From contig CANSWR010000001.1 of NCBI GenBank assembly GCA_947650795.1, positions 64,398 through 128,397 on the forward strand: 64,000 bases of DNA. The letters are read 5' to 3'. A program made the translations under genes and the position numbers. This document shows positions 20,956 to 55,210 of this stretch, in pieces. This stretch comes from an uncultured Bacillota bacterium. GTDB taxonomy: Bacteria > Bacillota_I > Bacilli_A > RF39 > UBA660. The notes under the pieces are model-generated. The model saw only the letters and a program-made list of their open reading frames with translations. It was not told the DNA's origin and did not search any database. How positions within the stretch are numbered: the stretch's first letter is position 1; every line of letters begins with the position of its first letter.

Positions 20956-21217
20956 TTGACAAACAAACATATTTATTATAAAATATCAACATAAATCGTT
21001 GAGAAAGAAGAGTAATATTAGACACTATTTATAGAAAGCCAAGTATGATGGAAATTGGTAATAAGACTAATATGAATAAAAACTTTTGAGTGGCAAATGC
21101 CCGGTTAATACCGTTACAAATATTGAGAAATCAAGTTATTGATAAATAAGGGTGGTACCACGAATTAAAACTCGTCCCTTAATAACAATAACTTTTTTAT
21201 TTTAAGGAGGAAATATT
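20956..21217 (+). promoter_or_regulatory. T-box riboswitch leader of lysS, with promoter, stem I, F-box, T-box and terminator
   Basis: TTGACA, 17-nt spacer, TAAAAT promoter. Stem I elements GTTGAGAAAGAAGAGTA. F-box CCGTTA. T-box AAGGGTGGTACCACG, followed by a terminator hairpin and a T-run. Confidence 0.7.
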
Positions 21218-39113: not shown

Positions 39114-39761
39114 CTACTCTCCTAGTTTTTGCACAACATTAAGCTTATTATTATCTTTAATTAAATAAAATACTCCTGTTTTATCATAACCTAAATCTTT
39201 TTCATACTCCCATTGAGCACTGACTTTATATGCCTCATAACTATTATCATTATAAGTATAACTTTCACTTACTATTTCATTAATAGTTACACTACTTACA
39301 ATAGGTAATTCTTGAACTCTATCACCATAAACATTATTTTTAATATGTCCATACATAGTATCACCTGAATGCATGATAAAATTATCTAACATATCATGAT
39401 GAATAAATTCTGTTCCTCCAATATCACTACTAGTTATTTTATTATTCAAAGTATAAAAATCAGTAACAAATAATTTAGTTAACCCACCTGCATATTCTTC
39501 CCAATTTAATTCTTCTTTACTCAAAATCTCTTTTAATTCATCAAAATATGTTTTATATAAAGAAGTATCTAAATCATCCAAAGTATATCCATAAATCTCT
39601 AAATTATCTAATTCCTTTTTTGATTTAATTTCTTTATCATCTGTTATAAAGAAATCAAACACAACTTTAACAGAAGTTACAGCAACTATTATAACAGTTA
39701 TTACAATAACTGAAAAGTAAAATAATCTATTTCTATTTATTTTTTTCTGCTTCTTTTTCAT
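39114..39761 (-). CDS. Membrane-anchored hypothetical protein, cotranscribed with the LtaS-like gene
   Basis: 215 aa with an N-terminal TM helix. The upstream LtaS-like gene overlaps it by 29 nt. Confidence 0.5.
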   Translation of the reverse strand: MKKKQKKINRNRLFYFSVIVITVIIVAVTSVKVVFDFFITDDKEIKSKKELDNLEIYGYTLDDLDTSLYKTYFDELKEILSKEELNWEEYAGGLTKLFVTDFYTLNNKITSSDIGGTEFIHHDMLDNFIMHSGDTMYGHIKNNVYGDRVQELPIVSSVTINEIVSESYTYNDNSYEAYKVSAQWEYEKDLGYDKTGVFYLIKDNNKLNVVQKLGE

Positions 39762-41832
39762 TTAAAATCACCCTTTCCAAATTATCTTTTTCCTTATCTA
39801 TTAAATCATGTACTATTATAGATTTACTTACATCTAATCTTTCATCAGCATACTCTTTTATTCTTTCTATATATAGAGTATCTATAGGTTCCTCTGTTAA
39901 AGGTATGTATTCTTCTCTTAAATTATTATAAAATCCTTTATTAGTTAATACATCTCCATTAGGAAAAACTACTATCTTTTCATTACCAGAAAAAATATCA
40001 TTACCAAGAGCATATTTATAATCAAATCCAAACATATTTGCTATTGTAGGAAGCACATCCCACATACCCATAACATCTGTAACTTCTCTTTTTAAACTAT
40101 CACTACCATCCCAAATAATTAATGGAGTATTCTTAATTAAATCATATTTATAATTATCAAAACTTACAAATGTAGGATCATCTTCACTTTTTATATCTCC
40201 TGTCATTGGATCATAATTATATAAAAGACTTAAATTCTTTTTACCTAATTTACTTTCATGATCACCATAAAATACAATAATTGTATCTTCAAGCATTCCA
40301 CTTTGTTTTAAAGCTTCAAAAAATTCTCCCAAAGCCTCATCAGCATAATGTGCACTTTTTAAATAATTACCCATCTCTGTGTCTTCTAAATATGGAACTG
40401 TCACAGTCTCTCGAATCTCTATTCCATTCGCATCATATTCACCTGTAGGTTTTTCAAAAGTAATGCTAAAATCTAATTCTCCATATTTATCTACATCTGC
40501 AAAAGGACTATGATTGCTAAGTGTTATTACAGTACCCATAAAAGGTTTATTACTATTTCTAATTTCTGTCAAAATTGGCATAACTTGATTAAAGAAAGAT
40601 TTATCAGAAAGACCAAGACCTATAAAATTCTCATCATTCTTATCTGAAGGTACTATAAAACTATCTTTAGCATAAAACTTTTTATATCCTAATGACTTAT
40701 ACATAGTTTCTCTATTCCAATAACTAGCTGCATTTGCATGCATACTGAACGTATAATATCCTAAAGAATTAAATTTCTTTTGAATAGTTTCATAATTTCT
40801 ATTAGAATAATTAACAAATACTGTACCACTAGAACTAGGTAATAATCCAGTACTCAAAGTAAACTCTGTATCACTACTAGTCCCTATACTTATTTGTGGA
40901 TAAAAACTTGAAAAATATAACCCTTCATGAGCAATTTTATTCAAATTTGGAGTTATCTCTATTCCATTAATTTCTAAATCTATCAAATAATTTTGAATAC
41001 TTTCTCCATGTATAAAGATAACATTTTTACCCTTAAATATATCAGTATAATCATTTTTCTCATGAGTATAATCTTTATTAGCATAAAAATCTCTAAAAAC
41101 TTTTGCCGAACTATCATATCCAAACATAGGACTTATAGATGGTTGAATACTTTGAACTAAATCATTAAAGGTATAAAAATATAGACCAAATCTCTGTACT
41201 ATAAAATCTCTATTCCATTGCTTAACTAATCTACTTCCTTCTTGATTAGTTAAAGTAATAATGATGAAGAATACAATTAATAAAGATACTGAAGATGTTC
41301 TAGTAAACATTTTCTTACCTTTTTCATATCTCCCTACAGTAAAATGATATTTCTTCTTAGAAAGTAATCTATTGACAATTATCAAAGTTATAGGCGCTAA
41401 TAAATATATGAAATAAATAATTTTTAACTTGTGAGTTACAGAATCACTTACCTCTCCTAGCATAGACAAAGTTCCTAATAAACTTACACTAACAAAACTC
41501 ATATAAAATGTATAATAAATATGATTTAAAATACATAAAAATGTATAAAAAGCATTAAGACCAAAAAAATACTTAAATTGATGCTTAGGATTTATCAAAT
41601 ATCCAAAAGATCCTAATAAAAGCACAACAGCTAAATCACAAAGTAACGCTTTAAAATCGTTAATAATCCCTATAGTAAAATACCTAAGAAGAAAACTTAT
41701 TAAAACTGAAGTAATTACATAAGTCAAAAACAAAATATTTGTAGAAAAATATTTTTTTAATCTTCTAAGTAATCTCTTATATGTTAGTTTAAAACGTTCA
41801 GCATTAAACTTCTTTTTAATCTTTTCAAACAT
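39733..41832 (-). CDS. LtaS-family lipoteichoic acid synthase / phosphoglycerol transferase (sulfatase-fold)
   Basis: Five N-terminal TM helices and an extracellular alkaline-phosphatase-superfamily domain (IFIHGESIQ, GTSSDTEFTLSTGLLP, SNHSPF). Confidence 0.8.
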   Translation of the reverse strand: MFEKIKKKFNAERFKLTYKRLLRRLKKYFSTNILFLTYVITSVLISFLLRYFTIGIINDFKALLCDLAVVLLLGSFGYLINPKHQFKYFFGLNAFYTFLCILNHIYYTFYMSFVSVSLLGTLSMLGEVSDSVTHKLKIIYFIYLLAPITLIIVNRLLSKKKYHFTVGRYEKGKKMFTRTSSVSLLIVFFIIITLTNQEGSRLVKQWNRDFIVQRFGLYFYTFNDLVQSIQPSISPMFGYDSSAKVFRDFYANKDYTHEKNDYTDIFKGKNVIFIHGESIQNYLIDLEINGIEITPNLNKIAHEGLYFSSFYPQISIGTSSDTEFTLSTGLLPSSSGTVFVNYSNRNYETIQKKFNSLGYYTFSMHANAASYWNRETMYKSLGYKKFYAKDSFIVPSDKNDENFIGLGLSDKSFFNQVMPILTEIRNSNKPFMGTVITLSNHSPFADVDKYGELDFSITFEKPTGEYDANGIEIRETVTVPYLEDTEMGNYLKSAHYADEALGEFFEALKQSGMLEDTIIVFYGDHESKLGKKNLSLLYNYDPMTGDIKSEDDPTFVSFDNYKYDLIKNTPLIIWDGSDSLKREVTDVMGMWDVLPTIANMFGFDYKYALGNDIFSGNEKIVVFPNGDVLTNKGFYNNLREEYIPLTEEPIDTLYIERIKEYADERLDVSKSIIVHDLIDKEKDNLERVILNEKEAEKNK

Positions 41833-41914: not shown

Positions 41915-42508
41915 TCAGTTATTAATAGTTGGTCTCTGTGTTGTTCCATTAGGATTTTGATCATTATAGTATATATCTGACTCTCCTAAATCTGCATAAA
42001 GAAGTGCAGAAAAAGTTTTTCCTTGATTTTGATTTTGTACTACACCTGTCTCAGGTAATTCCATAGTTAAAGTGTATGTTACACTTTGAGCCTCATTGCT
42101 AGCTGGAAAAGTCTTACTAACTATAGTATATGACTTCTTTTCTCCTGTAGAATCTAAAACTAAAGTTCCTACTGCACCATCTGACACAGAATCAACTTTA
42201 GCAGTTAACTCTGGCATATCATTAGTATAATCTAATTTAATATAAACTGTCTGTTCAACAACAGAAGGTGCTACTGTAATAGAAAAAGTTTTACTCTCTT
42301 TCCACCCAGGTTCAATATCAGTAGAAGCAACAAAATCACTACCACCATCAAATGTTACTCCACCTATAGTACTTGTAGAAATTACAACATCTCCTGGATT
42401 TCCTTCTATACTACCAGTAAAATAAGCAAAAGAGACACCCACCGCTGTAACTAAAACAGTCATTATTGTTAATACACTTAAAACAATCTCATACTTCTTT
42501 CCACTCAT
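41915..42508 (-). CDS. TasA/camelysin-like secreted protein with SipW-cognate-type signal peptide (paralog 3)
   Basis: Signal region ...TAVGVSFAYFTGS. TasA-like segments IEPGWKESKTFSITV and C-terminal QGKTFSALLYADL. Confidence 0.6.
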   Translation of the reverse strand: MSGKKYEIVLSVLTIMTVLVTAVGVSFAYFTGSIEGNPGDVVISTSTIGGVTFDGGSDFVASTDIEPGWKESKTFSITVAPSVVEQTVYIKLDYTNDMPELTAKVDSVSDGAVGTLVLDSTGEKKSYTIVSKTFPASNEAQSVTYTLTMELPETGVVQNQNQGKTFSALLYADLGESDIYYNDQNPNGTTQRPTINN

Positions 42509-42534
42509 AATAAACCTTCTTTCTGCCTCACTTA

Positions 42535-43131
42535 TTAAAGATTAGGATCTCCTTTAGCAACTATCTTTCCTTTAAAACTCTTACCTTGTAAAAAGTCTTG
42601 AGAAACTCCACTCTCTGTCAACATAAGTTTCAATTCACAATTATGAGTTACTCCAGTATTTATCATACCAGTTCCTATATTAGTACTTACTGTAGGAACC
42701 TTTCTAGGACTAGATACTTTAACTAAAGTATTCTTCTCACTTTCATTAATTTCTTTCCCATCCTTAACACTTGTACATTCTAAAGTATACACAAAATTAG
42801 CGTCATTTATATAATTCTCTTCTATTTCCCAAGCTAAAGTATAATTAGCATATAAATTATCTTCTGTACTTGTATTAACTATTGAAAAATTTAAAGTATC
42901 ACTCCATCCTGGAAGAATATCTTCACCATTTATACTATCAGTAGTTTCAAACATAGCAAAAACCTGAGCACTCTTCAATACTGTTTCACCATTTTCTTCA
43001 TTACCAACTACATTAGCAATATAAGCTGCATATGTTGTTCCAACTGCAACTGCTATAAAAGATAAAACTGGAATAACTGCTATAATAATTTCTTTAATTT
43101 TTGAATTTTTATTCTTTTTCTCTTCTTCCAT
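42535..43131 (-). CDS. TasA/camelysin-like secreted protein (paralog 2)
   Basis: Signal AVGTTYAAYIAN. TasA-like segments ILPGWSDTLNFSIVN and C-terminal QGKSFKGKIVAKG. Confidence 0.55.
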   Translation of the reverse strand: MEEEKKNKNSKIKEIIIAVIPVLSFIAVAVGTTYAAYIANVVGNEENGETVLKSAQVFAMFETTDSINGEDILPGWSDTLNFSIVNTSTEDNLYANYTLAWEIEENYINDANFVYTLECTSVKDGKEINESEKNTLVKVSSPRKVPTVSTNIGTGMINTGVTHNCELKLMLTESGVSQDFLQGKSFKGKIVAKGDPNL

Positions 43132-43296
43132 ACTTTCACCATTATTCTAAACTAATATAATAATATCATTTTTCCCATAAAAAAACAACAGTTCCACCAA
43201 AATTTTACAAAATATATTAAACGCAAAAAAAGTTAGCCTAATCATCGCTAACTTAATTTTCTTATTAATATAGTAAATTACTATGTTAAACTATTC

Positions 43297-43935
43297 TTAT
43301 TGTACATTTGGTTTAGTAGTTGTTCCGCCTTGATTAGCATCGTTATAATAAACACCTTCTGCACTTTCTAAACCACAACTTACTGTAGCATTAAATCTCA
43401 TACCTTGTTGAGCATTTTGATCAGTACCAGTTTCTTTGAAAGTAATTGAATACTTCATAGTCTTAGACTCACCAGATTTTAATGTTCCCTCAGCAATTTT
43501 AATCTTTTGAGGAGTACCAGCTGGTGTTAGTTCAGTAGTACCATCTGTATCAAAAGTTGCATATTTAACTATTGGTAATCTCTTATCATTAGCAGTAGCA
43601 TCAATATTATCTCCATTTACATTTAAGAACATATCAATTACTTCATTCCCAGTTACTTCTAGATTACATACATAATTAACATCAAAATCAGATGTTCCTA
43701 AAGATACTGTAACATTTTTTTCTTCAGAAGTCTTACCAGGTAAGATACTAGTTAAATTCAAAGCATCAGCTGTATAACTAACTTTACCTAAAGTACCAGT
43801 TGTAGCTTGTACATCTGCACTATTTCCACTCATTGTTGTAGTGAAATACGCGAATGTAGCACCTATAATAGCAACTAATAAAGTAGCAATACCAATTACT
43901 GATAGAAAAATAGTTTGTCCTCTGTTATCGTTCAT
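43297..43935 (-). CDS. TasA/camelysin-like secreted protein with SipW-cognate-type signal (paralog 1)
   Basis: Signal IIGATFAYFTTT, which matches GGTFAYFSD-type SipW-cognate signals. TasA-like segments QATTGTLGKV and C-terminal QQGMRFNATV. RBS GGAGG. Confidence 0.6.
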   Translation of the reverse strand: MNDNRGQTIFLSVIGIATLLVAIIGATFAYFTTTMSGNSADVQATTGTLGKVSYTADALNLTSILPGKTSEEKNVTVSLGTSDFDVNYVCNLEVTGNEVIDMFLNVNGDNIDATANDKRLPIVKYATFDTDGTTELTPAGTPQKIKIAEGTLKSGESKTMKYSITFKETGTDQNAQQGMRFNATVSCGLESAEGVYYNDANQGGTTTKPNVQ

Positions 43936-44143
43936 AGTCCTTTACCTCCTTTACTATATACAATCATATCAAGACTTACTAATAAAAGCAAGAAAAAGTT
44001 CAAAAAAAACACGACATTTTACAACAATAAAACACAAATAACTATTAAATTATTACTAAATTTACTTATAATATTTTACATTTAACAAATTATAATAAAT
44101 AGTATATATTTTATACTTTTCGCTTTATTTTACTATTAAAAAA

Positions 44144-44158
44144 CTGCAAAATTTGCAG
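44144..44158 (-). terminator. Terminator after the 560-aa repeat protein
   Basis: Palindrome CTGCAAAATTTGCAG immediately after the stop, followed on the minus strand by a T-run. Confidence 0.5.
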
Positions 44159-44159
44159 C

Positions 44160-45842
44160 TTATCTAGTACCCACTTTTAATCTTCCAAAGAACACTTTTC
44201 CTATATCAAAACTTTGATCATTATTCATATTCTTAAATTCATAAGTAAATTCATAGTTATGTGTTTCTCCTGGATTAATAGTCACATTAGTGATTATCTT
44301 CTGTCCATTATTAGCAGAATATAATACTCTTCCCTTATCTGGAGCAATTAACTCCTGATTATTTCTCTTAACTCCAAAATAAGGTCTATTTTCATATGTA
44401 AAACTATTTACCATATCATCCCATTCAATATCATAAGAAATAACTTCACTAGTATTATTAGTAACTTTAAAAGATTTAGTAGCTTTCCATCCTGGAACCA
44501 TCTCTACTGACTTAGGCAGAACATCTAAATAATCTAAACTATAAGTTAATCCTTTTTCATTTATATTGGCATCTTTAACTACATTCATAGATGTATCAAT
44601 TAAATCTCTATCTGCTATTCTATCTTCATTAGTATCTAAATTAGCGTCTGCTTTTCCATCATCATTTAAGTCAATATTAATATCTGCTTTTCCGTCTCCG
44701 TCTATATCTATATTCAAATTCGGAATTCCATTTTTATCTAAATCACAATTTAAGAAACATTTTCCATTCGCTTCTTGATTCATTAAATTCTTATCTGGTT
44801 TTCCATCTCCATCTGTATCTATATTAATGTCTGCTTTTCCATCTTGATCATAATCCAAATTTAGATAATTTCCATCTCCCATACTTATATTAATATCTGC
44901 CTTGACATCTCCATCTGTATCACAATTCAAATCACACTTACCATCACCAGTGGTATCAATATTTATTTCAGCAAGTCCATCATTATTTGTATCTATGTTA
45001 ATATCTGCTTTTCCATCTCCATCTAAATCAACATTTATCACTGGAAAATAACCATCTTTTATTAAACAATTAAGAACACATTTTCCATCTGTTTCTTGAT
45101 TGACTAAATTTTCATCTGGTTTTCCATCTCCGTCTGTATCAAGTCCGAAAATAGCTTTTTCATAATCATTTCCATATGTAACATTAACATCTGGTTTACC
45201 ATCGTTATTTGTATCTATGTTAATATCTGCCTTGCCATCTCCATCTGTATCTATATTTACCTGTGCTGTTCTTAACCCTAAAACATCACAATTTAAATCA
45301 CACTTTCCGTTTCCATTCTTATCTAAATTAATTCTAGCAACACCTGTTCCAGAAAAATCTAAATTAGTATCAGGATATCCATCTCTATTTGTATCACAAT
45401 TTATATCACATTTCCCATCATTATTTGTATCTTGATTAACTAAATTTTTATCCGCTTTTCCGTCTCCATTTGTATCTATATTAAAAAATGAAATTAAAGT
45501 CTTCTTATAACCTATATTAATATTTGGCTTATTATCTCCATCTGTATCACAATTAACATTACACTTGCCATCTCCATTTATATCTACATTTAAGTCTGGC
45601 CATCCATCTCCATCTGTATCTATATTAACGGCAAGAGATTTTCTAGCTTGAAAATAATTGATTATGACCACAGTAGTAGCAATAGTAGCACCTATAAATA
45701 TTAGCAAAGCAAAAATCATCATAACTTTTTGCTTACCTCTCTGTCTCTTATTCTTAGGATCTTTAAAATATAACCTTTCTTCTTCTATGATTCTTCTTTT
45801 CTCTTCTTCTCTTCTTATATCTTCATATCTTTCTCTATTCAT
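44160..45842 (-). CDS. Signal-anchored cell-surface protein with TSP3-like Ca-binding Asp repeats and a C-terminal TasA-like domain
   Basis: Charged cytoplasmic N-terminus, one TM helix (MMIFALLIFIGATIATTVVIINYF), about 30 DxDGDGKxDxNxD repeats, and a C-terminal domain with VPGWKATKSFKV...GKVFFGRLKV. It has its own TTGATT-17-TATCAT promoter and a GGAGA RBS. Confidence 0.8.
   Translation of the reverse strand: MNRERYEDIRREEEKRRIIEEERLYFKDPKNKRQRGKQKVMMIFALLIFIGATIATTVVIINYFQARKSLAVNIDTDGDGWPDLNVDINGDGKCNVNCDTDGDNKPNINIGYKKTLISFFNIDTNGDGKADKNLVNQDTNNDGKCDINCDTNRDGYPDTNLDFSGTGVARINLDKNGNGKCDLNCDVLGLRTAQVNIDTDGDGKADINIDTNNDGKPDVNVTYGNDYEKAIFGLDTDGDGKPDENLVNQETDGKCVLNCLIKDGYFPVINVDLDGDGKADINIDTNNDGLAEINIDTTGDGKCDLNCDTDGDVKADINISMGDGNYLNLDYDQDGKADINIDTDGDGKPDKNLMNQEANGKCFLNCDLDKNGIPNLNIDIDGDGKADINIDLNDDGKADANLDTNEDRIADRDLIDTSMNVVKDANINEKGLTYSLDYLDVLPKSVEMVPGWKATKSFKVTNNTSEVISYDIEWDDMVNSFTYENRPYFGVKRNNQELIAPDKGRVLYSANNGQKIITNVTINPGETHNYEFTYEFKNMNNDQSFDIGKVFFGRLKVGTR
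44640..45640. repeat. Degenerate tandem repeats encoding Asp-rich TSP3-like units within the 560-aa gene
   Basis: Periodic GATACAGATGGAGATGG-type units. They produce spurious plus-strand Ser/Phe/Pro-rich ORFs in the track. Confidence 0.7.
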
Positions 45843-45979
45843 ATTCTCTTCTCCTATTATCTAATATAAATGATAACATAAACAAATTGTTAAATCAAAT
45901 GAAAAGATTACTACTTATCATAAATTTTACGAACTAATTTATACAAAAAGAACTGCTATAATTAATAGCAATTCTAATA

Positions 45980-48900
45980 TTAATTCATTGTATCTACTCT
46001 AAGTTTAGCACTAAATGTCTTATCTTTATCAACATCTTGATTAAATTCCGTATTTCTAAACTCATAAGTTATTGTATAAACGTGAACCTCTCCAGGTTGA
46101 ATAGAAACATTTTCAACTAAACTCTTACCTTGATCAATATTTCTAGGAACTCTAGCAGTTTGAATATCTGCCACTACATTTCCATTTCTTGATAAACCAT
46201 AATATAAATTATTAGTTTCTGTAAATGTATTTATTATATTTGTCCAACTTATTTTATATTTAAGAACAGATGTACTATTATTCATAATAATAAATGTTTT
46301 ACTTCCTGTCCATCCAGGTACTAAGGCATTACTATTTAATTGACTTGTATCAACAAATTTCAACTGGCCAAGTATTACTTCCTCATCATCGCATTTTTCA
46401 TCACACTCGCCATCTCCGTCTGTGTCACATTCTTTAGTACAGTTTCCAGCATCGTCATAGCAGTTATAATCACATATTCCGTCCCCATCTGTATCACAAT
46501 TCTTCGTACACATATTAGGTTTATCTGGATTTTCATAGCAATTCAAGTCACAGACTCCATCTCCATTTGTATCACAATTCTTTGTACATACTCCTGGGTT
46601 ATCTGGATCATTATGACAATTTACGTCACAGACACCATCTCCATCAGTGTCACAGTTCTTTGTACATAAATCTGGTCTGTCTGGGTTTTCATGACAATTT
46701 CTATCACAGACTCCATCTTTATTATCATCACAATCATTCTGACAAGTACAGTTTCTATCACAAATTCCGTCTCCGTTATCATCACAATTTTTAGTACACA
46801 CATCTGGATTATCTGGATTTTCATTACAATTTAAGTCACAGACTCCGTCTCCATCTAAATCACAGTTCTTTGTACATACTCCTGGTTTGTCTGGATTTTC
46901 ATTACAATTTACATCACATTTTCCATCTCCATCTGTATCACAGTTCTTTGTACACACTCCTGGCTTATTTGGGTCTTCATAACAGTTTCTATCACAAATT
47001 CCATCTCCGTTGTCATCACAATTCTTTGTACATACTCCTGGTTTATTAGGGTCATCATAACAATTTACATCACAAACACCATCCCCATTTGTGTCACAAT
47101 TCTTTGTACATACTCCTGGTTTATTTGGGTCTTCATAACAGTTTCTATCACAGACTCCATCTCCGTTGTCATCACAATTCTTTGTACATACTCCTGGTTT
47201 ATTTGGATCATTATGACAATTCACATCACAAATTCCATCTCCATTTGTATCACAATTCTTTGTACATACATCTGGTCTATTTGGATCTTCATAACAGTTT
47301 CTATCACAGATTCCATCTTTATTATCATCACAATTTATTTTACAATAGCAATTTCTATCACAAATTCCGTCTCCGTTATCATCGCAATTTTCCTTACAAG
47401 TACAATTTACATCACAAATTCCATCTCCATTTGTGTCACAATTCTTTGTACATACTCCTGGTTTATTTGGGTCTTCATAACAGTTCATATCACAGATGCC
47501 ATCTCCATTGTTATCACAATTTTTAGTACATACTCCTGGTTTACTTGGATCTTCATAGCAGTTTACATCACATTTTCCGTCTCCATCTGTATCACAATTT
47601 TTAGTACACACATTTGGTTTATTCGGATTTTCATAACAATCTACATCACATTTTCCGTCTCCATCTGTATCACAATTCTTTGTACATACTCCTGGTTTAC
47701 TTGGATCTTCATAACAGTTTAAATCACAAATTCCATCTCCATTATTATCACAATTCTTTGTACATACATCTGGTTTTTTAGGGTCTTCATAACAATTTAC
47801 ATCGCATTTTCCATCCCCATTTGTATCACAGTTTTTAATACATTTATCATTATTATCATAACAATTTTTATCACATTTATCATCGCCGTTAATGTCACAG
47901 TTTTTATCACACTTTCCGTCTCCGTCTGTATCACAATTCAAATCACACTTGCCATCTTTATCTGTATCACAATTTAAGTCGCACTTTCCGTCTCCGTTTG
48001 TATCCAAATTCATATCTGGCTTTCCGTCTCCATCTGTGTCACAGTTTAAATCACAAATTCCGTCTCCATCTGTATCTTGGTTAGTAAGATTATCATCTGG
48101 TTTTCCATCTTTATCTGTATCACAGTTATAGTCACATACTCCATCATTATCTACATCTATATTTATATCTGGTTTTCCATCCCCATCTACATCTATATTT
48201 GTATCTGGCCATTCATCTCCATTTGTGTCACAGTTTAAATCACATACTCCGTCTCCATTTGTATCTTGATTTATTGGATTTCTATCTGGTTTTCCATCTC
48301 CGTTTGTATCAACATTTACATCTGGTTTTCCGTCCCCATCTATATCTAAATTCATATCTGGTAACTTATTCCCATTTGTATCTATATTTGTATCTGGTTT
48401 CCCATCTCCATCTATATCACAGTTATAATTACAGTTTCCAGTTCCATCAGTATTACAGTTTAAGTCACACTTTCCGTCTCCGTCTGTATCTATATTAATA
48501 TCTGGTTTTCCATCTCCATCTAAATCCAAATTAGTATCTGGCCATCCATCTTTATCTGTATCACAATTCAAATCGCACTTGCCATCTCCATTTGTATCCT
48601 GATTTACAAGATTTTTATCTGGTTTTCCATCTCCATCTGTATCTATATTAAATATTGGTTTATCATCAGGATCTCCTTTTATAGAAATATTAATATCTGG
48701 TTTTCCATCTCCATTTGTATCACAATTGACATCACACTTTCCGTCTCCGTTTGTATCTATGTTTAAATCTGGTTTCATATCTCCATCTAAATCACAGTTC
48801 AAATCACATTTTCCGTCTCCATCTGTGTCTATATTAATATCTACCTTGCCATCTCCATCTAAATCCAAATTAGTATCTGGCCATCCATCATTATCTATAT

Positions 48901-49348
48901 CACAGTTCAAATCACACTTTCCATCTCCATCTGTGTCTTGATTCATTAAATTCCAATCTGGTTTTCCATCTCCATTTGTATCAACATTAAATATAGCTGC
49001 ATGTAACTTTCCAAATTTAGGATAACTTATATTAATATCTGGTTTTCCATCTCCATCTGTATCACAGTTTACATCACATTTTCCATCATTATCTAAATCT
49101 ATATTTAAGTCTGGCCATCCATCCCCATTCAAATCAACATTAAGTTTATAAGTATTATTTCTAATATAATTAACAATAGACCAAGTTCCAAAAGCAGTAA
49201 GTCCTAAAAGTATAACAAAAAATATAAATATTAAAATAAATCTTTTTTTCTTCTCATCCTTTGTCTCAGCCATCTCATAATAAAGGCCATCCTCTTCTAT
49301 AATTTTTTTCTCTTCCTCAGTATAAGGGTCTCTTTTTACACTCTTCAT
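45980..49348 (-). CDS. Giant (1122 aa) signal-anchored surface protein: TSP3-like Asp repeats, about 20 Cys-rich 26-aa modules, and a C-terminal TasA-like domain
   Basis: Cytoplasmic N-terminus and TM helix (FILIFIFFVILLGLTAFGTWSIV). DxDGDGKPDxNxD repeats. The repeated module CTKNCDTNGDGICDVNCYEDPNKPGV. C-terminal ALVPGWTGSKTFII...DKTFSAKLRV. The terminator is a TGCTAT...ATAGCA hairpin. Confidence 0.85.
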   Translation of the reverse strand: MKSVKRDPYTEEEKKIIEEDGLYYEMAETKDEKKKRFILIFIFFVILLGLTAFGTWSIVNYIRNNTYKLNVDLNGDGWPDLNIDLDNDGKCDVNCDTDGDGKPDINISYPKFGKLHAAIFNVDTNGDGKPDWNLMNQDTDGDGKCDLNCDIDNDGWPDTNLDLDGDGKVDINIDTDGDGKCDLNCDLDGDMKPDLNIDTNGDGKCDVNCDTNGDGKPDINISIKGDPDDKPIFNIDTDGDGKPDKNLVNQDTNGDGKCDLNCDTDKDGWPDTNLDLDGDGKPDINIDTDGDGKCDLNCNTDGTGNCNYNCDIDGDGKPDTNIDTNGNKLPDMNLDIDGDGKPDVNVDTNGDGKPDRNPINQDTNGDGVCDLNCDTNGDEWPDTNIDVDGDGKPDINIDVDNDGVCDYNCDTDKDGKPDDNLTNQDTDGDGICDLNCDTDGDGKPDMNLDTNGDGKCDLNCDTDKDGKCDLNCDTDGDGKCDKNCDINGDDKCDKNCYDNNDKCIKNCDTNGDGKCDVNCYEDPKKPDVCTKNCDNNGDGICDLNCYEDPSKPGVCTKNCDTDGDGKCDVDCYENPNKPNVCTKNCDTDGDGKCDVNCYEDPSKPGVCTKNCDNNGDGICDMNCYEDPNKPGVCTKNCDTNGDGICDVNCTCKENCDDNGDGICDRNCYCKINCDDNKDGICDRNCYEDPNRPDVCTKNCDTNGDGICDVNCHNDPNKPGVCTKNCDDNGDGVCDRNCYEDPNKPGVCTKNCDTNGDGVCDVNCYDDPNKPGVCTKNCDDNGDGICDRNCYEDPNKPGVCTKNCDTDGDGKCDVNCNENPDKPGVCTKNCDLDGDGVCDLNCNENPDNPDVCTKNCDDNGDGICDRNCTCQNDCDDNKDGVCDRNCHENPDRPDLCTKNCDTDGDGVCDVNCHNDPDNPGVCTKNCDTNGDGVCDLNCYENPDKPNMCTKNCDTDGDGICDYNCYDDAGNCTKECDTDGDGECDEKCDDEEVILGQLKFVDTSQLNSNALVPGWTGSKTFIIMNNSTSVLKYKISWTNIINTFTETNNLYYGLSRNGNVVADIQTARVPRNIDQGKSLVENVSIQPGEVHVYTITYEFRNTEFNQDVDKDKTFSAKLRVDTMN
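46400..47950. repeat. Near-identical 78-nt tandem DNA repeats (about 20 copies) encoding the Cys-rich TSP3-like modules
   Basis: Visible periodicity, for example ...CAATTCTTTGTACATACTCCTGGTTTATTTGGGTCTTCATAACAGTTTCTATCACAGACTCCATCTCC... recurring every 78 nt. Spurious plus-strand ORFs at 46340-46669, 47089-47526 and 47213-47722 derive from these repeats. Confidence 0.85.
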
Positions 49349-49417
49349 AAATCCTCCCTAGTATCTAACATAAATAATATCACAATAATACGCTTAAATC
49401 AAACAAAAAGAGTAAAT

Positions 49418-50470
49418 CTATACACCATTACTCTTATTTTTTTTACACAATTTATCATAAATTATATTTAACAATATAAATAACCCAGTAACAATAACAA
49501 ATAAATAAAAACTTAACCCCCTACTAATAAGCATTGCACTACCAAGAATTGATGTAGGAAACAAAGACTTAAACATTAACATAAATGCCCCTTCACTAGC
49601 GCCCACAGTTCCTGGCATAGGCATATAAGAAACAGCCATACTAAGAGAAGCTTGTAAAAACACAAATGTAAAAAAGTTTTCTCCTTGTAAACCTAAAGAC
49701 TTAAAAACAAAATAAGGAACACTATAATACAAAATCATCTGAACTAAAGTTGTTAAAAAGATTTTAAATAGAATTAGTTTATGATTTTTTAAATAAACTG
49801 AACATTCATGATACTCATCTATTTGCTTCAAGCATTTATCATAAAATAAATCACTTTTTTTATAATGAATTTTCTTTAATATTTTATAAACTAAATTAAT
49901 TATCTTTGTAACACTAACCTTAGAAAAAATCATCATAATCAAGAAAGTTAAATAAAGAATATTAATAATCATTCCCAAAAACATAAAATATTTCATACTA
50001 CTAACAGAATTCATAAGTATATCAAAATTAATAATTAATCCTGTTAAAGATAACACACATAGTACTGCTTGAAAACTAGAAAGTTCTACTAACAAAGCAA
50101 GAGCACTATGAGAAATAGAAAGACCATCTTTAGCCATAAAATACAACTGAGCAGGATCTCCACCAGTTGAAGATGGAGTTATAGAACTAAAAAAGAATCC
50201 AACACATGCGTACTTAAACGATGATATAAAACTGACATCATGTCCTGTAGTTTTTAAAACTCTTCTAATGTTAATCCCCTCTCCACTTATAAAAGCAAAC
50301 ATACATAAAATTCCTATAAAAATAAACTTAAAATCAGTCTTATAAATATTATTAAGTATCAAATTAATATCATGATTTTTAAACACAACAAAAAAAGTAC
50401 AACTAACACACAGAAAAAATAACAATAAGTAAACTATTCTAACCTTTCTACTTTTCATCATAACTATCAA
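49418..50470 (-). CDS. Flippase-like / LPG_synthase_TM (UPF0104) family membrane protein
   Basis: 350 aa, polytopic, with TPSSTGGDPAQLYFMAKDG. This family is commonly linked to glycolipid glycosyltransferases. Confidence 0.6.
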   Translation of the reverse strand: MIVMMKSRKVRIVYLLLFFLCVSCTFFVVFKNHDINLILNNIYKTDFKFIFIGILCMFAFISGEGINIRRVLKTTGHDVSFISSFKYACVGFFFSSITPSSTGGDPAQLYFMAKDGLSISHSALALLVELSSFQAVLCVLSLTGLIINFDILMNSVSSMKYFMFLGMIINILYLTFLIMMIFSKVSVTKIINLVYKILKKIHYKKSDLFYDKCLKQIDEYHECSVYLKNHKLILFKIFLTTLVQMILYYSVPYFVFKSLGLQGENFFTFVFLQASLSMAVSYMPMPGTVGASEGAFMLMFKSLFPTSILGSAMLISRGLSFYLFVIVTGLFILLNIIYDKLCKKNKSNGV

Positions 50471-51113
50471 GTCTCCTAAAATTATAACCTCTTTCCAACA
50501 AAATAGGCAAAGCTTTTTCTAAAGCTTTTAACGTTCTATAAGGAGCATTATTTTTTCCTCTTCCATCATGCAAACATATAATATCTCCTCCACGAACTCT
50601 ATTAATAATTCTTGTTTTTATTTCATTCTCACTAATATTAGCACGCCAATCCTCTGCCATAACATTCCAAAAAACTAATTTTAATTTATACTTACTAACA
50701 AAATACAAACTAAATAAATTTATATTACCCCAAGGTGGTCTATAAAACTTTAAATCTTTTAAAACTCTTGTACTATCTCTAAAATCTTTAAAAGTTCTAA
50801 AAAATCCCATAAACCATGCATTTTTATGTTTTAAAGAATGAATACCTATTAAATGTCCTTCATGATACATTCTTTCTATTAAATCCTTATTTTTTAAAGC
50901 AAAATCTCCTACCACAAAGAAAGTACATTTAATATCATATTTCTTTAACAAATCTAATATATGATTAGTATATATACTAGGACCATCATCAAACGTCAAA
51001 TACAAATTATTTCCATTTTTAGGACGTTTTAACTTATAAAATAACTTATAAAAATACGTTGGAATTACATCATATATTATAAATAGAACAATAACTATTA
51101 TAACCCACTTCAT
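50448..51113 (-). CDS. Polysaccharide deacetylase (CE4, NodB homology)
   Basis: LTFDDGPS motif, His-rich motifs (HSLKH, HDGRG) and an N-terminal TM helix. Confidence 0.8.
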   Translation of the reverse strand: MKWVIIVIVLFIIYDVIPTYFYKLFYKLKRPKNGNNLYLTFDDGPSIYTNHILDLLKKYDIKCTFFVVGDFALKNKDLIERMYHEGHLIGIHSLKHKNAWFMGFFRTFKDFRDSTRVLKDLKFYRPPWGNINLFSLYFVSKYKLKLVFWNVMAEDWRANISENEIKTRIINRVRGGDIICLHDGRGKNNAPYRTLKALEKALPILLERGYNFRRLDSYDEK

Positions 51114-52150
51114 AATAATTCACCAGTATAACTAACGTTTTCAAACTCTAACTTAACATTCCTCATATTATTTTTCATAACATTAATTTTTTCCTTTGCT
51201 TCTACCATTTCTATTATATCACTATGAATATATTTTTTATTCTTCCAAAGAACTTTTCCTATTCCTTTACGTTCAATATATAAAGCATTTCCTACTTCTT
51301 GAGCTAAAAAAGGTTTTAAACATAAAATAGGAGTTTCACTTCTTATAGCTTCACTCATTGTAATCCCACCTGCTTTAGTAACTATTAAAGTAGCTTTATT
51401 CATATACTCATAAACTTTATCTGTGAATCCTATAATATTTATATTTTTATATTTCATATATAACTTATTATAAAGTTTTTTATTATACCCTAAAATAACA
51501 TTAACATGTATATTATCATACTTTTCAAGAACATCTAAAGAATTACTTATACCAGGAATTAACCCTAATCCACCGCCCATTATTAAAACTTCCGTTTTTC
51601 CTAAACTAGATTTATCACAAAACTCACTTTTTACGGGAATACCACTAACACATATATCTTTATTATTTATACCATTATACATTAAAAATTCCTTAGTCTC
51701 ATTAGAAGATACAAAATATTTTGAAGTTCCACTATTTAACCATTCTCTATGAACATCCACATCCGTTATAACCGTATACATAATTATTTTACTTCCTGTT
51801 GTTTTCTTAAAAGCAGAAATATACTGTGAACATATAGGTAATACAGAAATAATCAAATCTATATTTTTTTCTTTTATTAATCTTTCTATTTTCTTAACAT
51901 TAACCTTTTTTAAAGGAGCACTAGTACTTTTAGAAGCATACTTATTAAGAAAATTATACAAATGAGAACATTTTCCTACTAAAAAATCAAATAAACAATA
52001 AATTATTTTATTTAACTTAGGAAATAAATATTCTATTAAATCTATTACTTCTACATCACAATTTCCCTCTTTAATTATTTTATCCTTTATACTATAAGCA
52101 GCACTCATATGTCCAAAACCAAACTTACCTGCTAAAATTAAAACATTCAT
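51110..52150 (-). CDS. Glycolipid glycosyltransferase (MGDG-synthase/UgtP-like, GT28)
   Basis: MNVLILAGKFGFGHMSAAYSI is an MGDG_synth-type N-terminus. The C-terminal part is GT-B, including the segment VITKAGGITMSEAI. Confidence 0.7.
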   Translation of the reverse strand: MNVLILAGKFGFGHMSAAYSIKDKIIKEGNCDVEVIDLIEYLFPKLNKIIYCLFDFLVGKCSHLYNFLNKYASKSTSAPLKKVNVKKIERLIKEKNIDLIISVLPICSQYISAFKKTTGSKIIMYTVITDVDVHREWLNSGTSKYFVSSNETKEFLMYNGINNKDICVSGIPVKSEFCDKSSLGKTEVLIMGGGLGLIPGISNSLDVLEKYDNIHVNVILGYNKKLYNKLYMKYKNINIIGFTDKVYEYMNKATLIVTKAGGITMSEAIRSETPILCLKPFLAQEVGNALYIERKGIGKVLWKNKKYIHSDIIEMVEAKEKINVMKNNMRNVKLEFENVSYTGELL

Positions 52151-53191: not shown

Positions 53192-55210
53192 CTATTCACC
53201 TTTATTCTTTCTCATCATAATTAGTGCTTCATTTATAGCATCATCAATAGTGGTTGACTCTGCATTTATCATAGAATATCCTACACTAGCGCCATATTCA
53301 TAAGGCAAATTTTTAAATTCTTTTAATAATTTATTAACATATGTTACAATTTGCTTTTCTTCATATCCTACTAAATAAACTAGAAATTCATTTCCATCAG
53401 TTCTAATTATTTCAGAATTTTCTCTTTGAGTTTTTATTAAAATTCCAGCAGCACCCTTAATTTGTTTGTCACCTTCCTCATGTCCCTTAGTATCATTTAT
53501 AGTTGATATACTATTAAGATCAACTACAACAATAGCTTGAGGATAAATCTTATTAGACTCCCAATAATTAAGATTATCATTCAAATAATTTCTATTCTTT
53601 AAATTAGTCATGACATCTAAATACATCATTTTATCTTCTTTTTTAATTTTCTTAGTAACTTTAACTTTCTTATTAAACTTAAATAATAAGAATGATATTG
53701 CTAAAACTAATACCAAAATATAAGTTATATTACTTATAACAAACTGAATAATTATATTTGCATTAACATCATGAAGTGAACTACTAACTGCCATATTATG
53801 AACAGACTTATTACCTAAAGTAGTTAGATAAAAATTAAACATATCATTAAGTACTTTATTATCATTATTCAATAAGAAATTATTACTAACATCACTCATA
53901 CCTATATATTTAATAACATAATTTTTAAGCTTACTATTTTTATAAAAATCAAATGTACTTTTCTCCATTACTATTACATCTTTATTATTCAAACTTTTAA
54001 ATAATTCTTCATAATTATTAAATACATGAACCTCTATTTGTTTTTCTCTTATAAAATTAAATAATCTAGTCTTATCAACCATCTTAATATTATCATCTTT
54101 TATACTTTCTAAACTCTCAACTGGTATAACATTATCTTGATGCGTAATAATAACATAATTTATATTACCTAAACCAACACTTGATTTATAATTAGAATTA
54201 CTAATATTATAATAATTAAGTACCAAATCAACTTTCTTTTGATTTAAAGCTTCATTTAATTTCTGTACATCTGTATATTTAATATATTTATATGTAGCGC
54301 CTGTCATATCTGCAAATAAACTTAAATATTGATTAGTAACCCCACTAAAACTATTATTGATTTTACCTTCAAACGGCATGTTGTCTATATATCCAACTAA
54401 CAAGTCATCCCCAGTAATAGTTTCCTTTTCAAGTTCACTTAATTTATAAGATTTATAATAAAGTGATAAAAAATGTTTATTAATACTTGAATATATATTA
54501 TCTTCCCATTTATTGTAAAACTTTTTAAAGACACTACTTAATATATCTTCATTACTATCTGGCGTAGATAAAACATAATGTGAGTGTAGTCCTTCTATAT
54601 GATACACAATATTATATTTATTATACACTATATCTGTCATATATTTATACATAGGAACAATCGCGTATATTATAGTATCATTCATAGATTCATCAATAGT
54701 TTCAAAATCTCCATATCCTTGAAAACTTAAGCTATAACTTTTTAAATAATCTGATATATAATCTTTATCTGTACTAATAGTGCCTATAACTTGATTACTA
54801 ATTGTAGATAAATCCGTAATTTGATTATCCAGTTTACTTATCAAAACATAATGATCAGTATAAAAAACTAAATCATTCTTTGAAACATCATTTTTATTTA
54901 AAAGCTTATAAGCATCTGCTGAATTACCATCAGTACTTACAGTAATATTAAATGTAAGACCAGTATCTTTTTCCATTTCTCTTAAATAATCATAAAATAC
55001 TCCTTCACCATTTTCACTAAAAATTGGCAAATTAGATTGAACATTAACCTTTTTAACATCAGAAACATTACTATTAATCCAATTTTTTTCAGCAAAAGAA
55101 TAATTATTTTTAGAATTATTTACATAATACAATATTCCAAATATAAGTACTAATAATATTAAAATTAACCCCGTTATTAAAAAATATTTCTTTTTATTAT
55201 TTTTTTTCAT
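53192..55210 (-). CDS. Membrane sensor protein with a large extracytoplasmic domain and a C-terminal degenerate GGDEF domain (DGNEF)
   Basis: TM helix, about 470 aa outside, a second TM helix, then a GGDEF-like fold (AIVVVDLNSISTINDTKGHEEGD...RTDGNEFLV). The GG(D/E)EF motif reads DGNEF. Confidence 0.7.
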   Translation of the reverse strand: MKKNNKKKYFLITGLILILLVLIFGILYYVNNSKNNYSFAEKNWINSNVSDVKKVNVQSNLPIFSENGEGVFYDYLREMEKDTGLTFNITVSTDGNSADAYKLLNKNDVSKNDLVFYTDHYVLISKLDNQITDLSTISNQVIGTISTDKDYISDYLKSYSLSFQGYGDFETIDESMNDTIIYAIVPMYKYMTDIVYNKYNIVYHIEGLHSHYVLSTPDSNEDILSSVFKKFYNKWEDNIYSSINKHFLSLYYKSYKLSELEKETITGDDLLVGYIDNMPFEGKINNSFSGVTNQYLSLFADMTGATYKYIKYTDVQKLNEALNQKKVDLVLNYYNISNSNYKSSVGLGNINYVIITHQDNVIPVESLESIKDDNIKMVDKTRLFNFIREKQIEVHVFNNYEELFKSLNNKDVIVMEKSTFDFYKNSKLKNYVIKYIGMSDVSNNFLLNNDNKVLNDMFNFYLTTLGNKSVHNMAVSSSLHDVNANIIIQFVISNITYILVLVLAISFLLFKFNKKVKVTKKIKKEDKMMYLDVMTNLKNRNYLNDNLNYWESNKIYPQAIVVVDLNSISTINDTKGHEEGDKQIKGAAGILIKTQRENSEIIRTDGNEFLVYLVGYEEKQIVTYVNKLLKEFKNLPYEYGASVGYSMINAESTTIDDAINEALIMMRKNKGE

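Follow-up and report, generated by a model that had tools for sequence, protein, structure and literature searches.

Is a tandem array of 78-nt units inside a long bacterial coding sequence a hot spot of length variation, or is it an ordinary coding repeat whose copies have drifted apart, and what could it do for the encoded protein? This question is raised by a 64,000-nt stretch of DNA from an uncultured Bacillota bacterium (RF39; UBA660; assembly GCA_947650795.1, contig CANSWR010000001.1, positions 64,398 to 128,397), hereafter called the window, in which the host gene of the array is a complete minus-strand open reading frame (ORF) of 1122 aa (45980..49348 in the ORF list). A preliminary description of the locus had proposed a hypervariable, recombination-prone length polymorphism that is hard to assemble from short reads. 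In this study, the array looked like an ordinary diverged coding repeat, and not like a hot spot of length variation or an assembly hazard. The reading we favor, with a probability of roughly 0.6, is that this old, diverged in-frame array forms the membrane-distal half of a calcium- and cysteine-stabilized extracellular spacer in a TasA-type fiber system.

The 1122-aa protein consists of a 36-aa charged tail, a hydrophobic segment, approximately 930 residues of repeats and a 127-aa C-terminal domain. Its parts, in the order of translation, are as follows.

49172..49240, minus strand: hydrophobic segment FILIFIFFVILLGLTAFGTWSIV (aa 37-59), behind the 36-aa charged N-terminal tail, read from the translation
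47843..49147, minus strand: N-proximal repeat tract (aa 68-502), made of 12-aa (36-nt) Dx[DN]xDG units
46442..47842, minus strand: 78-nt array (aa 503-969), 16 units starting with C[TI]KNC, parsed on the protein
46955..47266, minus strand: two 156-nt double units (aa 695-746 and 747-798) with a 48-nt exact repeat, the array's youngest portion
46364..46441, minus strand: divergent terminal CTKEC unit CTKECDTDGDGECDEKCDDEEVILGQ and linker to the C-terminal domain, the order being kept in the related contig L006
45983..46363, minus strand: C-terminal TasA-like beta-sandwich domain (aa 996-1122)

Tandem Repeats Finder (TRF) reported a period of 78 at 46757-47821 (13.3 copies, 70% matches, 6% indels) and again at 46470-46718 (3.2 copies, 75% matches). 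Longer periods were reported as well: 156 and 420 nt, each at 83% matches, and 234 nt, the matches for all three lying at 72-83%. Parsing on the protein level agreed with this, and the tandem array of about 78 nt is indeed present, in frame, where the preliminary description had placed it in the 1122-aa gene; of the two example units that it quoted, the second occurs once (at aa 773) and the first has no verbatim occurrence. The 26-aa unit follows the consensus CTKNCDxxGDGxCDxNCYEDPxKPGV. Among the 16 units of the array, 13 are canonical, one has 23 aa, and two, of 62 and 44 aa (47267-47452 and 46667-46798, respectively), are enlarged by 18-aa half-units. In the N-proximal tract, units of the kinds ...GK-P-D-x-N-I and ...GK-C-D-x-N-C occur, and TRF also reported longer periods there, of 189 and 339 nt (rows at 47895-49084, 60-82% matches). 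Random 78-mers from the window averaged 31% identity with a 99.9th percentile of 49%, a level that the 78-nt array exceeds well. Plus-strand antisense ORFs of 109-169 aa also lie within the array (46340-46669, 47089-47526 and 47213-47722); they were rejected as genes, being by-products of the repeat periodicity without supporting evidence.

The pairwise DNA identity of the 14 full-length units had a mean of 77.4% (57.7-94.9%), neighboring units shared 62-85% of their DNA, and the mean protein identity between 26-aa units was 73.3%. Of the exact direct repeats, the longest measured 59 nt, with its copies separated by 342 nt, and the next 48 nt, with a separation of 156 nt; the rest did not exceed 36 nt. 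Thus, the near-identical DNA units of the hypervariable tandem-repeat class (variable-number tandem repeats or contingency loci) were not found, and the terms 'near-perfect' and 'high copy-to-copy identity', used previously for this array, are wrong. At positions where two units carry the same amino acid, the codon was shared 72.5% of the time, compared with 70.5% predicted from the codon usage of 17 other window genes and 70.2 +/- 1.0% after shuffling of codons within the array, where 25 of 1000 shuffles reached the observed value. Synonymous sites between units are almost randomized. Because synonymous codon identity is so close to the codon-usage expectation, the DNA similarity is mostly a by-product of protein conservation and a strongly AT-biased code, and the previous statement that the repeat exists at more than the protein level is not supported. 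A minority of unit pairs (aa 529/695, 721/773, 529/721 and 695/799) had 90-95% synonymous identity, and the central 156-nt double units were 91.7% identical in DNA and 92% in protein. These few pairs suggest more recent duplication or conversion, and they indicate that the duplications were nested and that the core at 46955-47266 is younger than the rest.

Some observations favor hypervariability, in which frequent slippage or RecA-dependent exchange would vary the length of a stalk between cells or strains, as in a contingency locus or a Periscope protein. All 51 exact direct repeats of at least 20 nt (two of them those of 48 and 59 nt) have offsets that are multiples of 3. The 91.7% identity of the central double unit and the later duplication or conversion suggested by pairs at 90-95% synonymous identity fit as well, as does the fact that orthologues differ in repeat architecture and that contigs of relatives break inside more uniform 36-nt arrays. 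However, mean unit identity is only 77%, synonymous sites are near saturation, and the array falls below the operational thresholds for Periscope Proteins (repeats of >50 residues with >=80% identity; PMC8201768). Two further observations, both given below, weigh on the same side: the array is free of indels between the window and three other assemblies, and the order of its terminal units is kept in a species at 80.6% DNA identity (L006). Taken together, we consider a recombination-prone, hypervariable array quite unlikely.

The exact 1122-aa protein is encoded on at least four contigs. We compared the window base by base with three fetched contigs, each of which is shorter than the window and therefore comes from another assembly.

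L001 (ERZ14425206), 44-kb contig: identical to the window across the 23,369 nt fetched
L002 (ERZ14425196), 5.6-kb contig: one substitution relative to the window, outside the array
L004 (ERZ14425191), 45.9-kb contig: two substitutions over the 15 kb fetched, one of them in the array at 47311

All three near-clonal contigs align with the window without a gap, in the array and elsewhere. The four assemblies, including the window, come from one study and represent essentially one strain (at least 99.98% identity), and thus are a weak probe of strain variation. Within that scope, the hypervariability proposed in the preliminary description found no indel to support it.

The same contigs bear on whether the array is an artifact, that is, whether short-read collapse or misassembly has hidden a true gene with more, nearly identical copies. 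All sources are low-coverage short-read metagenome assemblies (3.5-7.7x), the 59-nt exact repeat is longer than common assembler k-mers, collapse can recur reproducibly across assemblies, and the arrays of the related contigs L030 and L031 show artifacts or breaks. On the other hand, four assemblies agree with 0-1 substitutions in the array, and every unit is distinct: any 100-nt stretch of the array differs from all others by at least 4 mismatches and any 150-nt stretch by at least 12, so that ordinary reads can be placed uniquely. The contigs have a coverage of only 4-8x, yet they cross the array, and the two contig ends that fall within the 1122-aa gene (L004 at 49165 and L005 at 46099) both lie outside the 78-nt array. 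Moreover, the reading frame is unbroken from a GGAGG ribosome-binding site, 6 nt 5' of the ATG, through to a predicted terminator. The flanking signals are as follows.

49374..49402, minus strand: predicted promoter-like site TTGATT-17-TATTAT with extended TG, from a consensus scan alone and given no functional weight
45949..45975, minus strand: predicted terminator-like hairpin and T-run right behind the stop codon, from a consensus scan

Collapse or misassembly is therefore, in our view, highly unlikely. Gap-free agreement and unique placement of reads together argue against an assembly hazard as well as against a high-frequency switch, and since 100-nt stretches are unique and assemblies at 4-8x span the array, the warning that it would be hard to assemble from short reads is not supported.

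Relatives of the locus provide a longer time scale. No close genome was found among GTDB representatives in a scan with the adjacent flippase-like gene, whose GTDB matches were Clostridia loci (the best at 43% over a partial match, and 32-37% over the full length). A search of JGI metagenome contigs with CTKNCDxxGDGxCD as a degenerate-codon DNA pattern gave 0 matches, a protein search including JGI found no close relative, and the nearest comparable array among 5.8 billion proteins was 44% identical. Two contigs were informative. The first, L006 (ERZ14867592; 1158 nt, 2.6x coverage), has 80.6% DNA identity and covers the final units of the array, the odd 23-aa and CTKEC units among them, followed as in the window by the C-terminal domain and the beginning of the next gene; because these terminal units are colinear, the 3' end of the array is older than the split of the L006 species. 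The second, L031 (ERZ27287180), is a distant positional orthologue, whose C-terminal domain is 47% identical to that of the 1122-aa protein and 39% to that of a 560-aa paralogue encoded next to it in the window; its downstream gene (562 aa) is colinear with this paralogue at 50% identity. Beside this domain, L031 carries a run of no fewer than 16 units of 36 nt (12 aa; CDLNCDTxxDGK), which continues off the contig; the units have a mean DNA identity of 82%, and a 72-nt exact repeat is present. Since 12-aa units occupy the same place in L031, the 26-aa unit is a lineage-specific derivative of the 12-aa unit, enlarged by 14 residues (YEDPNKPGV + CTKNC). The tract of the long gene has been remodeled over evolutionary time, whereas the short paralogue holds its length (562 vs 560 aa). 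The notion that the tract changes is thus correct for evolution, where 12-aa and 26-aa units distinguish orthologues, and not for frequent change. Contigs of relatives stop inside more uniform 36-nt arrays, and one of them (L030 1-703, carrying protein P0139) has two 36-nt arrays head to head, reverse-complement at 1-325 and forward at 318-703, probably an assembly artifact.

The codon usage of the repeat tract (46364-49147) differed from that of 20 other genes of the window. GAC made up 17-24% of Asp codons (vs 3%) and AAC 27% of Asn codons (vs 5% elsewhere in the genes of the window; p below 1e-6), while A-ending ACA, CCA, GGA and GTA replaced the T-ending codons favored elsewhere. The codons of Gly, Thr, Pro and Val in the repeats thus shift toward a single A-ending codon, and those of Cys, Tyr and His are unshifted. 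This may be due to a founder effect when the unit was amplified, to selection acting against identical repeats or to an expression-linked bias. Codon scrambling selected to stabilize the array was set aside, since the shifts are not a uniform diversification and founder effects fit equally well; GC-biased conversion was rejected, as the shifts are not uniform across amino acids; and avoidance of GATC as the cause of GAC use was unsupported, because GAC is enriched before every following base. In the window as a whole, GATC occurs 67 times vs approximately 140 expected from base composition, which may reflect restriction avoidance.

With regard to the protein, it contains 229 Asp, 150 Asn, 114 Gly and 108 Cys, as well as 47 canonical Dx[DN]xDG motifs in which position 9 is Asp. 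Dx[DN]xDG binds calcium in at least 12 structural families, thrombospondin included (PMC3123361). The 26-aa unit is a 12-aa Dx[DN]xDG loop with a Cys pair at positions 8 and 12 (CDxNC), extended by a 14-aa insert (YEDPNKPGV + CTKNC) that brings a second CxxxC pair to each unit. Positions 8 and 12 are occupied either by two Cys or by Pro and a non-Cys residue: 33 units of the 1122-aa protein are of the C/C type and none has a single Cys. In 29 relatives, C/C units outnumbered single-Cys units at these positions by 97 to 7, and in 9 unrelated proteins with acidic repeats Cys was found at position 8 or 12 in 0 of 257 units. Because of this covariation, the two residues would work as an i/i+4 pair, for which the motif predicts a disulfide as the simplest reading and a shared metal site as the alternative.

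Such a composition may also suggest that the repeats are the working part of the protein, an acidic, Cys-rich polymer that sequesters calcium or other metals or cross-links cells and matrix, with copy number tuning capacity instead of reach. The 229 Asp, 47 calcium-type motifs and 108 Cys, the strict conservation of the Cys pairs, a share of repeats of >80% of the protein, the runs of the same Dx[DN]xDG type in many unrelated Firmicute surface proteins, and the lack of a folded rod in AlphaFold2 models are all in line with it. However, relatives with like termini carry unrelated, non-acidic repeats in the middle. The proteins P0336 (1126 aa) and P0308 (751 aa) have a like N-terminus and a TasA-like C-terminal domain, with repeats of approximately 60-70 aa between them that are beta-rich and contain Cys; total lengths in this architecture range from about 560 to 1126 aa. 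As repeats are interchangeable between like termini, the middle tract would mainly provide length, and we regard a working-part role as rather unlikely, although less so than hypervariability or collapse.

An alignment of the C-terminal domain from 12 family members yielded a beta-sandwich model with a predicted local distance difference test (pLDDT) score of 84, for which Foldseek ranked TasA second (E 4e-3). The same alignment, used as a hidden Markov model, matched all five consecutive genes of the cluster at 41915..49348. Its profile reached a probability of 98% (E 9e-14) in hhalign against the adjacent 198-aa protein, and E values of 1e-14, 2e-11 and 4e-5 against the three small genes. 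One of these, the 212-aa protein, passes Pfam Peptidase_M73 (PF12389; camelysin/TasA) with 23.4 bits vs a cut-off of 22.5. The C-terminal domain itself did not match Peptidase_M73, a Pfam search gave no hit for either the whole 1122-aa protein or its C-terminal 127 aa, and TasA was not hit at the sequence level in the PDB with the C-terminal domain. Being homologous to proteins that match Peptidase_M73 and having a predicted TasA-like fold, the domain is placed in the TasA/camelysin superfamily by profile and modeled fold, not by direct Pfam match. In a HMMER scan, the domain was present in 1949 cluster representatives, either directly following an N-terminal signal or in C-terminal position in proteins whose lengths vary widely. 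The other genes of the cluster are as follows.

44160..45842, minus strand: 560-aa paralogue with tail, hydrophobic segment, Dx[DN]xDG repeats and TasA-like domain, without 26-aa units
41915..43935, minus strand: three TasA/camelysin-like secreted-type genes of 212, 198 and 197 aa, sharing the C-terminal-type domain

The hydrophobic segment at aa 37-59 could anchor the protein in the membrane or serve as a signal peptide of the SipW class; it ends in GTWS, which resembles the ...[ST][FY]A.[FY] ends of the N-terminal segments of the neighboring 197-, 198- and 212-aa proteins. In relatives, a SipW-type signal peptidase (TIGR02228, 99.5 bits vs a cut-off of 51.85) is encoded directly 3' of family members in L025 and L027, and no such gene stands beside the family member in L028 or L029. 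These two loci belong to one related clade, where a conserved block (4423-10730 of L025 and 4434-10735 of L027) runs from FtsE and FtsX through an M23 peptidase, a protein of 229-235 aa without annotation and the family protein to the SipW-type peptidase.

Under the favored reading, the following course of events is proposed. The array would have grown in this lineage by nested duplications of 78, then 156 and then approximately 420 nt, and would then have diverged until synonymous sites were almost randomized, with few units duplicated or converted later. Calcium binding and CxxxC disulfides (or joint metal sites) may stiffen the tract, which would set the distance of the TasA-like domain from the membrane end of the protein. 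This domain probably joins or nucleates donor-strand-exchange fibers of the three small TasA-like proteins encoded downstream. Because the repeats lie between the N-terminal membrane segment and the C-terminal globular domain, an altered copy number would alter the length of the spacer, and the stalk idea of the preliminary description is plausible; frequent variation is not supported. Copy number would shift by unequal recombination rarely, on an evolutionary time scale, and not as a high-frequency switch.

Several points weigh against this reading. With respect to stability, the four concordant assemblies stand for one near-clonal population, and differences between strains are out of their reach; moreover, occasional recombination is conceivable at the in-frame exact repeats (48-59 nt) and at the 156-nt double unit with its 92% identity. 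With respect to the spacer, calcium binding and disulfides are predictions from motifs; the AlphaFold2 model of four 26-aa units (7-row alignment) had a pLDDT of 44, was unusable and lends no support to a rod-like shape; Pfam TSP_3 was not found on the repeat segments (E up to 10) or the whole protein (0.01); and sequence searches of the PDB with the repeats gave no thrombospondin or COMP chain. With respect to the fiber system, no SipW-like ORF was found in the 64-kb window. PDB hits to filamin and polcalcin were discarded, being weak or compositional.

In Bacillus, TasA and TapA use a donor-strand mechanism, and TapA is regarded as the accessory protein that anchors and nucleates TasA fibers (PMC9674648). 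On this background, a more tentative extension is possible: the protein may represent a class of TasA-system proteins not yet described, from uncultured low-GC Bacillota, whose members would carry a TasA-like acceptor or nucleator domain on an interchangeable spacer behind an N-terminal membrane (or SipW-type) segment. In this lineage, 47 loops loaded with calcium and stapled by CxxxC pairs would form a wire that tethers the TasA-like fibers independently of the wall and fixes their stand-off from the cell, a distance that would evolve as new types of unit (12 aa, then 26 aa) are invented and amplified in a given lineage. We consider this extension less likely than not.

Farther from the array, the genes 5' of the cluster (49418-52150 and 53192-55210, minus strand) encode a flippase-like LPG_synthase_TM protein, a polysaccharide deacetylase and a glycosyltransferase like diglucosyl-diacylglycerol synthase, and look like a set for glycolipid or envelope modification. 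A 672-aa GGDEF protein is encoded further upstream of these envelope-type genes, and LtaS downstream of the cluster at 39733-41832. One additional element of the window is given below; it fits a Bacillota origin, and the GC content of 26.8%, this leader, LtaS and translation table 11 are all Bacillota-like features.

20990-21182, plus strand: T-box leader (Rfam RF00230, 103.7 bits vs a gathering score of 93)

The locus is of interest in several respects. First, it offers a worked example of how repetition at the DNA level can be told apart from repetition at the protein level, by examining synonymous sites against codon usage. Second, it draws attention to an uncharacterized architecture, consisting of a tail, a hydrophobic segment, an interchangeable repeat spacer and a TasA-like domain, which, lying beside TasA-like subunits or SipW-type peptidases, could be an anchoring or nucleating partner of TasA-type fibers in gut and rumen Bacillota. 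Finally, the strict alternation of C/C with P/non-Cys at two positions of the calcium loop cleanly predicts a disulfide or metal site of the i/i+4 type.

Among known systems, Periscope Proteins (SasG/Aap, Rib and Sgo_0707/SHIRT; PMC8201768) resemble the 1122-aa protein in having a long in-frame repeat tract between a cell-proximal end and a distal globular domain, so that reach would depend on the number of repeats. In Periscope Proteins, the repeats are folded domains with near-identical DNA whose copy number differs between close strains, and the operational definition of the class requires repeats of >50 residues with >=80% identity (PMC8201768). The units described here have 26 aa, with 73% identity in protein and 77% in DNA, and showed no variation between near-clonal assemblies; only one pair of 52-aa double units, at 92%, reaches that size and identity. 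A distal globular domain is present, given the hydrophobic N-terminal segment and the C-terminal beta-sandwich model (pLDDT 84). However, anchoring would be by an N-terminal hydrophobic segment instead of LPXTG, with the distal domain at the C-terminus.

The Ser-Asp regions of staphylococcal MSCRAMMs (ClfA/ClfB/SdrC/SdrD) share with this tract an Asp-rich, repetitive spacer in a Gram-positive surface protein, with NCBIfam E values of 1e-23 to 1e-28. These matches cover the low-complexity region only, are compositional and not a sign of homology (81-99 bits vs cut-offs of 999-2500), and were rejected; the 1122-aa protein has neither the A domain nor LPXTG.

A parallel in mechanism is offered by the thrombospondin type 3 (TSP3) calcium-binding repeats, including bacterial ones of the OmpA type, whose tandem Dx[DN]xDG loops likewise have Asp as the ninth residue and come with Cys pairs. 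The differences are that no sequence match to Pfam TSP_3 (PF02412), thrombospondin or COMP was observed, that CxxxC lies within the 12-aa unit, and that the 26-aa unit has a Pro-rich insert. To judge from its sequence, the tract resembles TSP3 at the level of motif and mechanism and is not a member of the family. A 2017 study by Dai and colleagues, cited in PMC12045341, is reportedly, by its title, concerned with intra-repeat, disulfide-dependent calcium binding of bacterial TSP3 repeats.

The last comparison is with the TasA/TapA/SipW system of Bacillus biofilm fibers and camelysin/CalY. The domain described here has approximately 120 residues vs approximately 230 in TasA, ends a repeat tract of approximately 930 residues behind a 36-aa cytoplasmic-type tail, has no sequence-level PDB hit and is encoded in a window without a SipW gene, and fiber formation is in this case a proposal. 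What the two systems have in common is the TasA-like jellyroll, predicted in the C-terminal domain and in the products of four neighboring genes, together with one neighbor over the Peptidase_M73 threshold and relatives that have an adjacent SipW-type peptidase gene.

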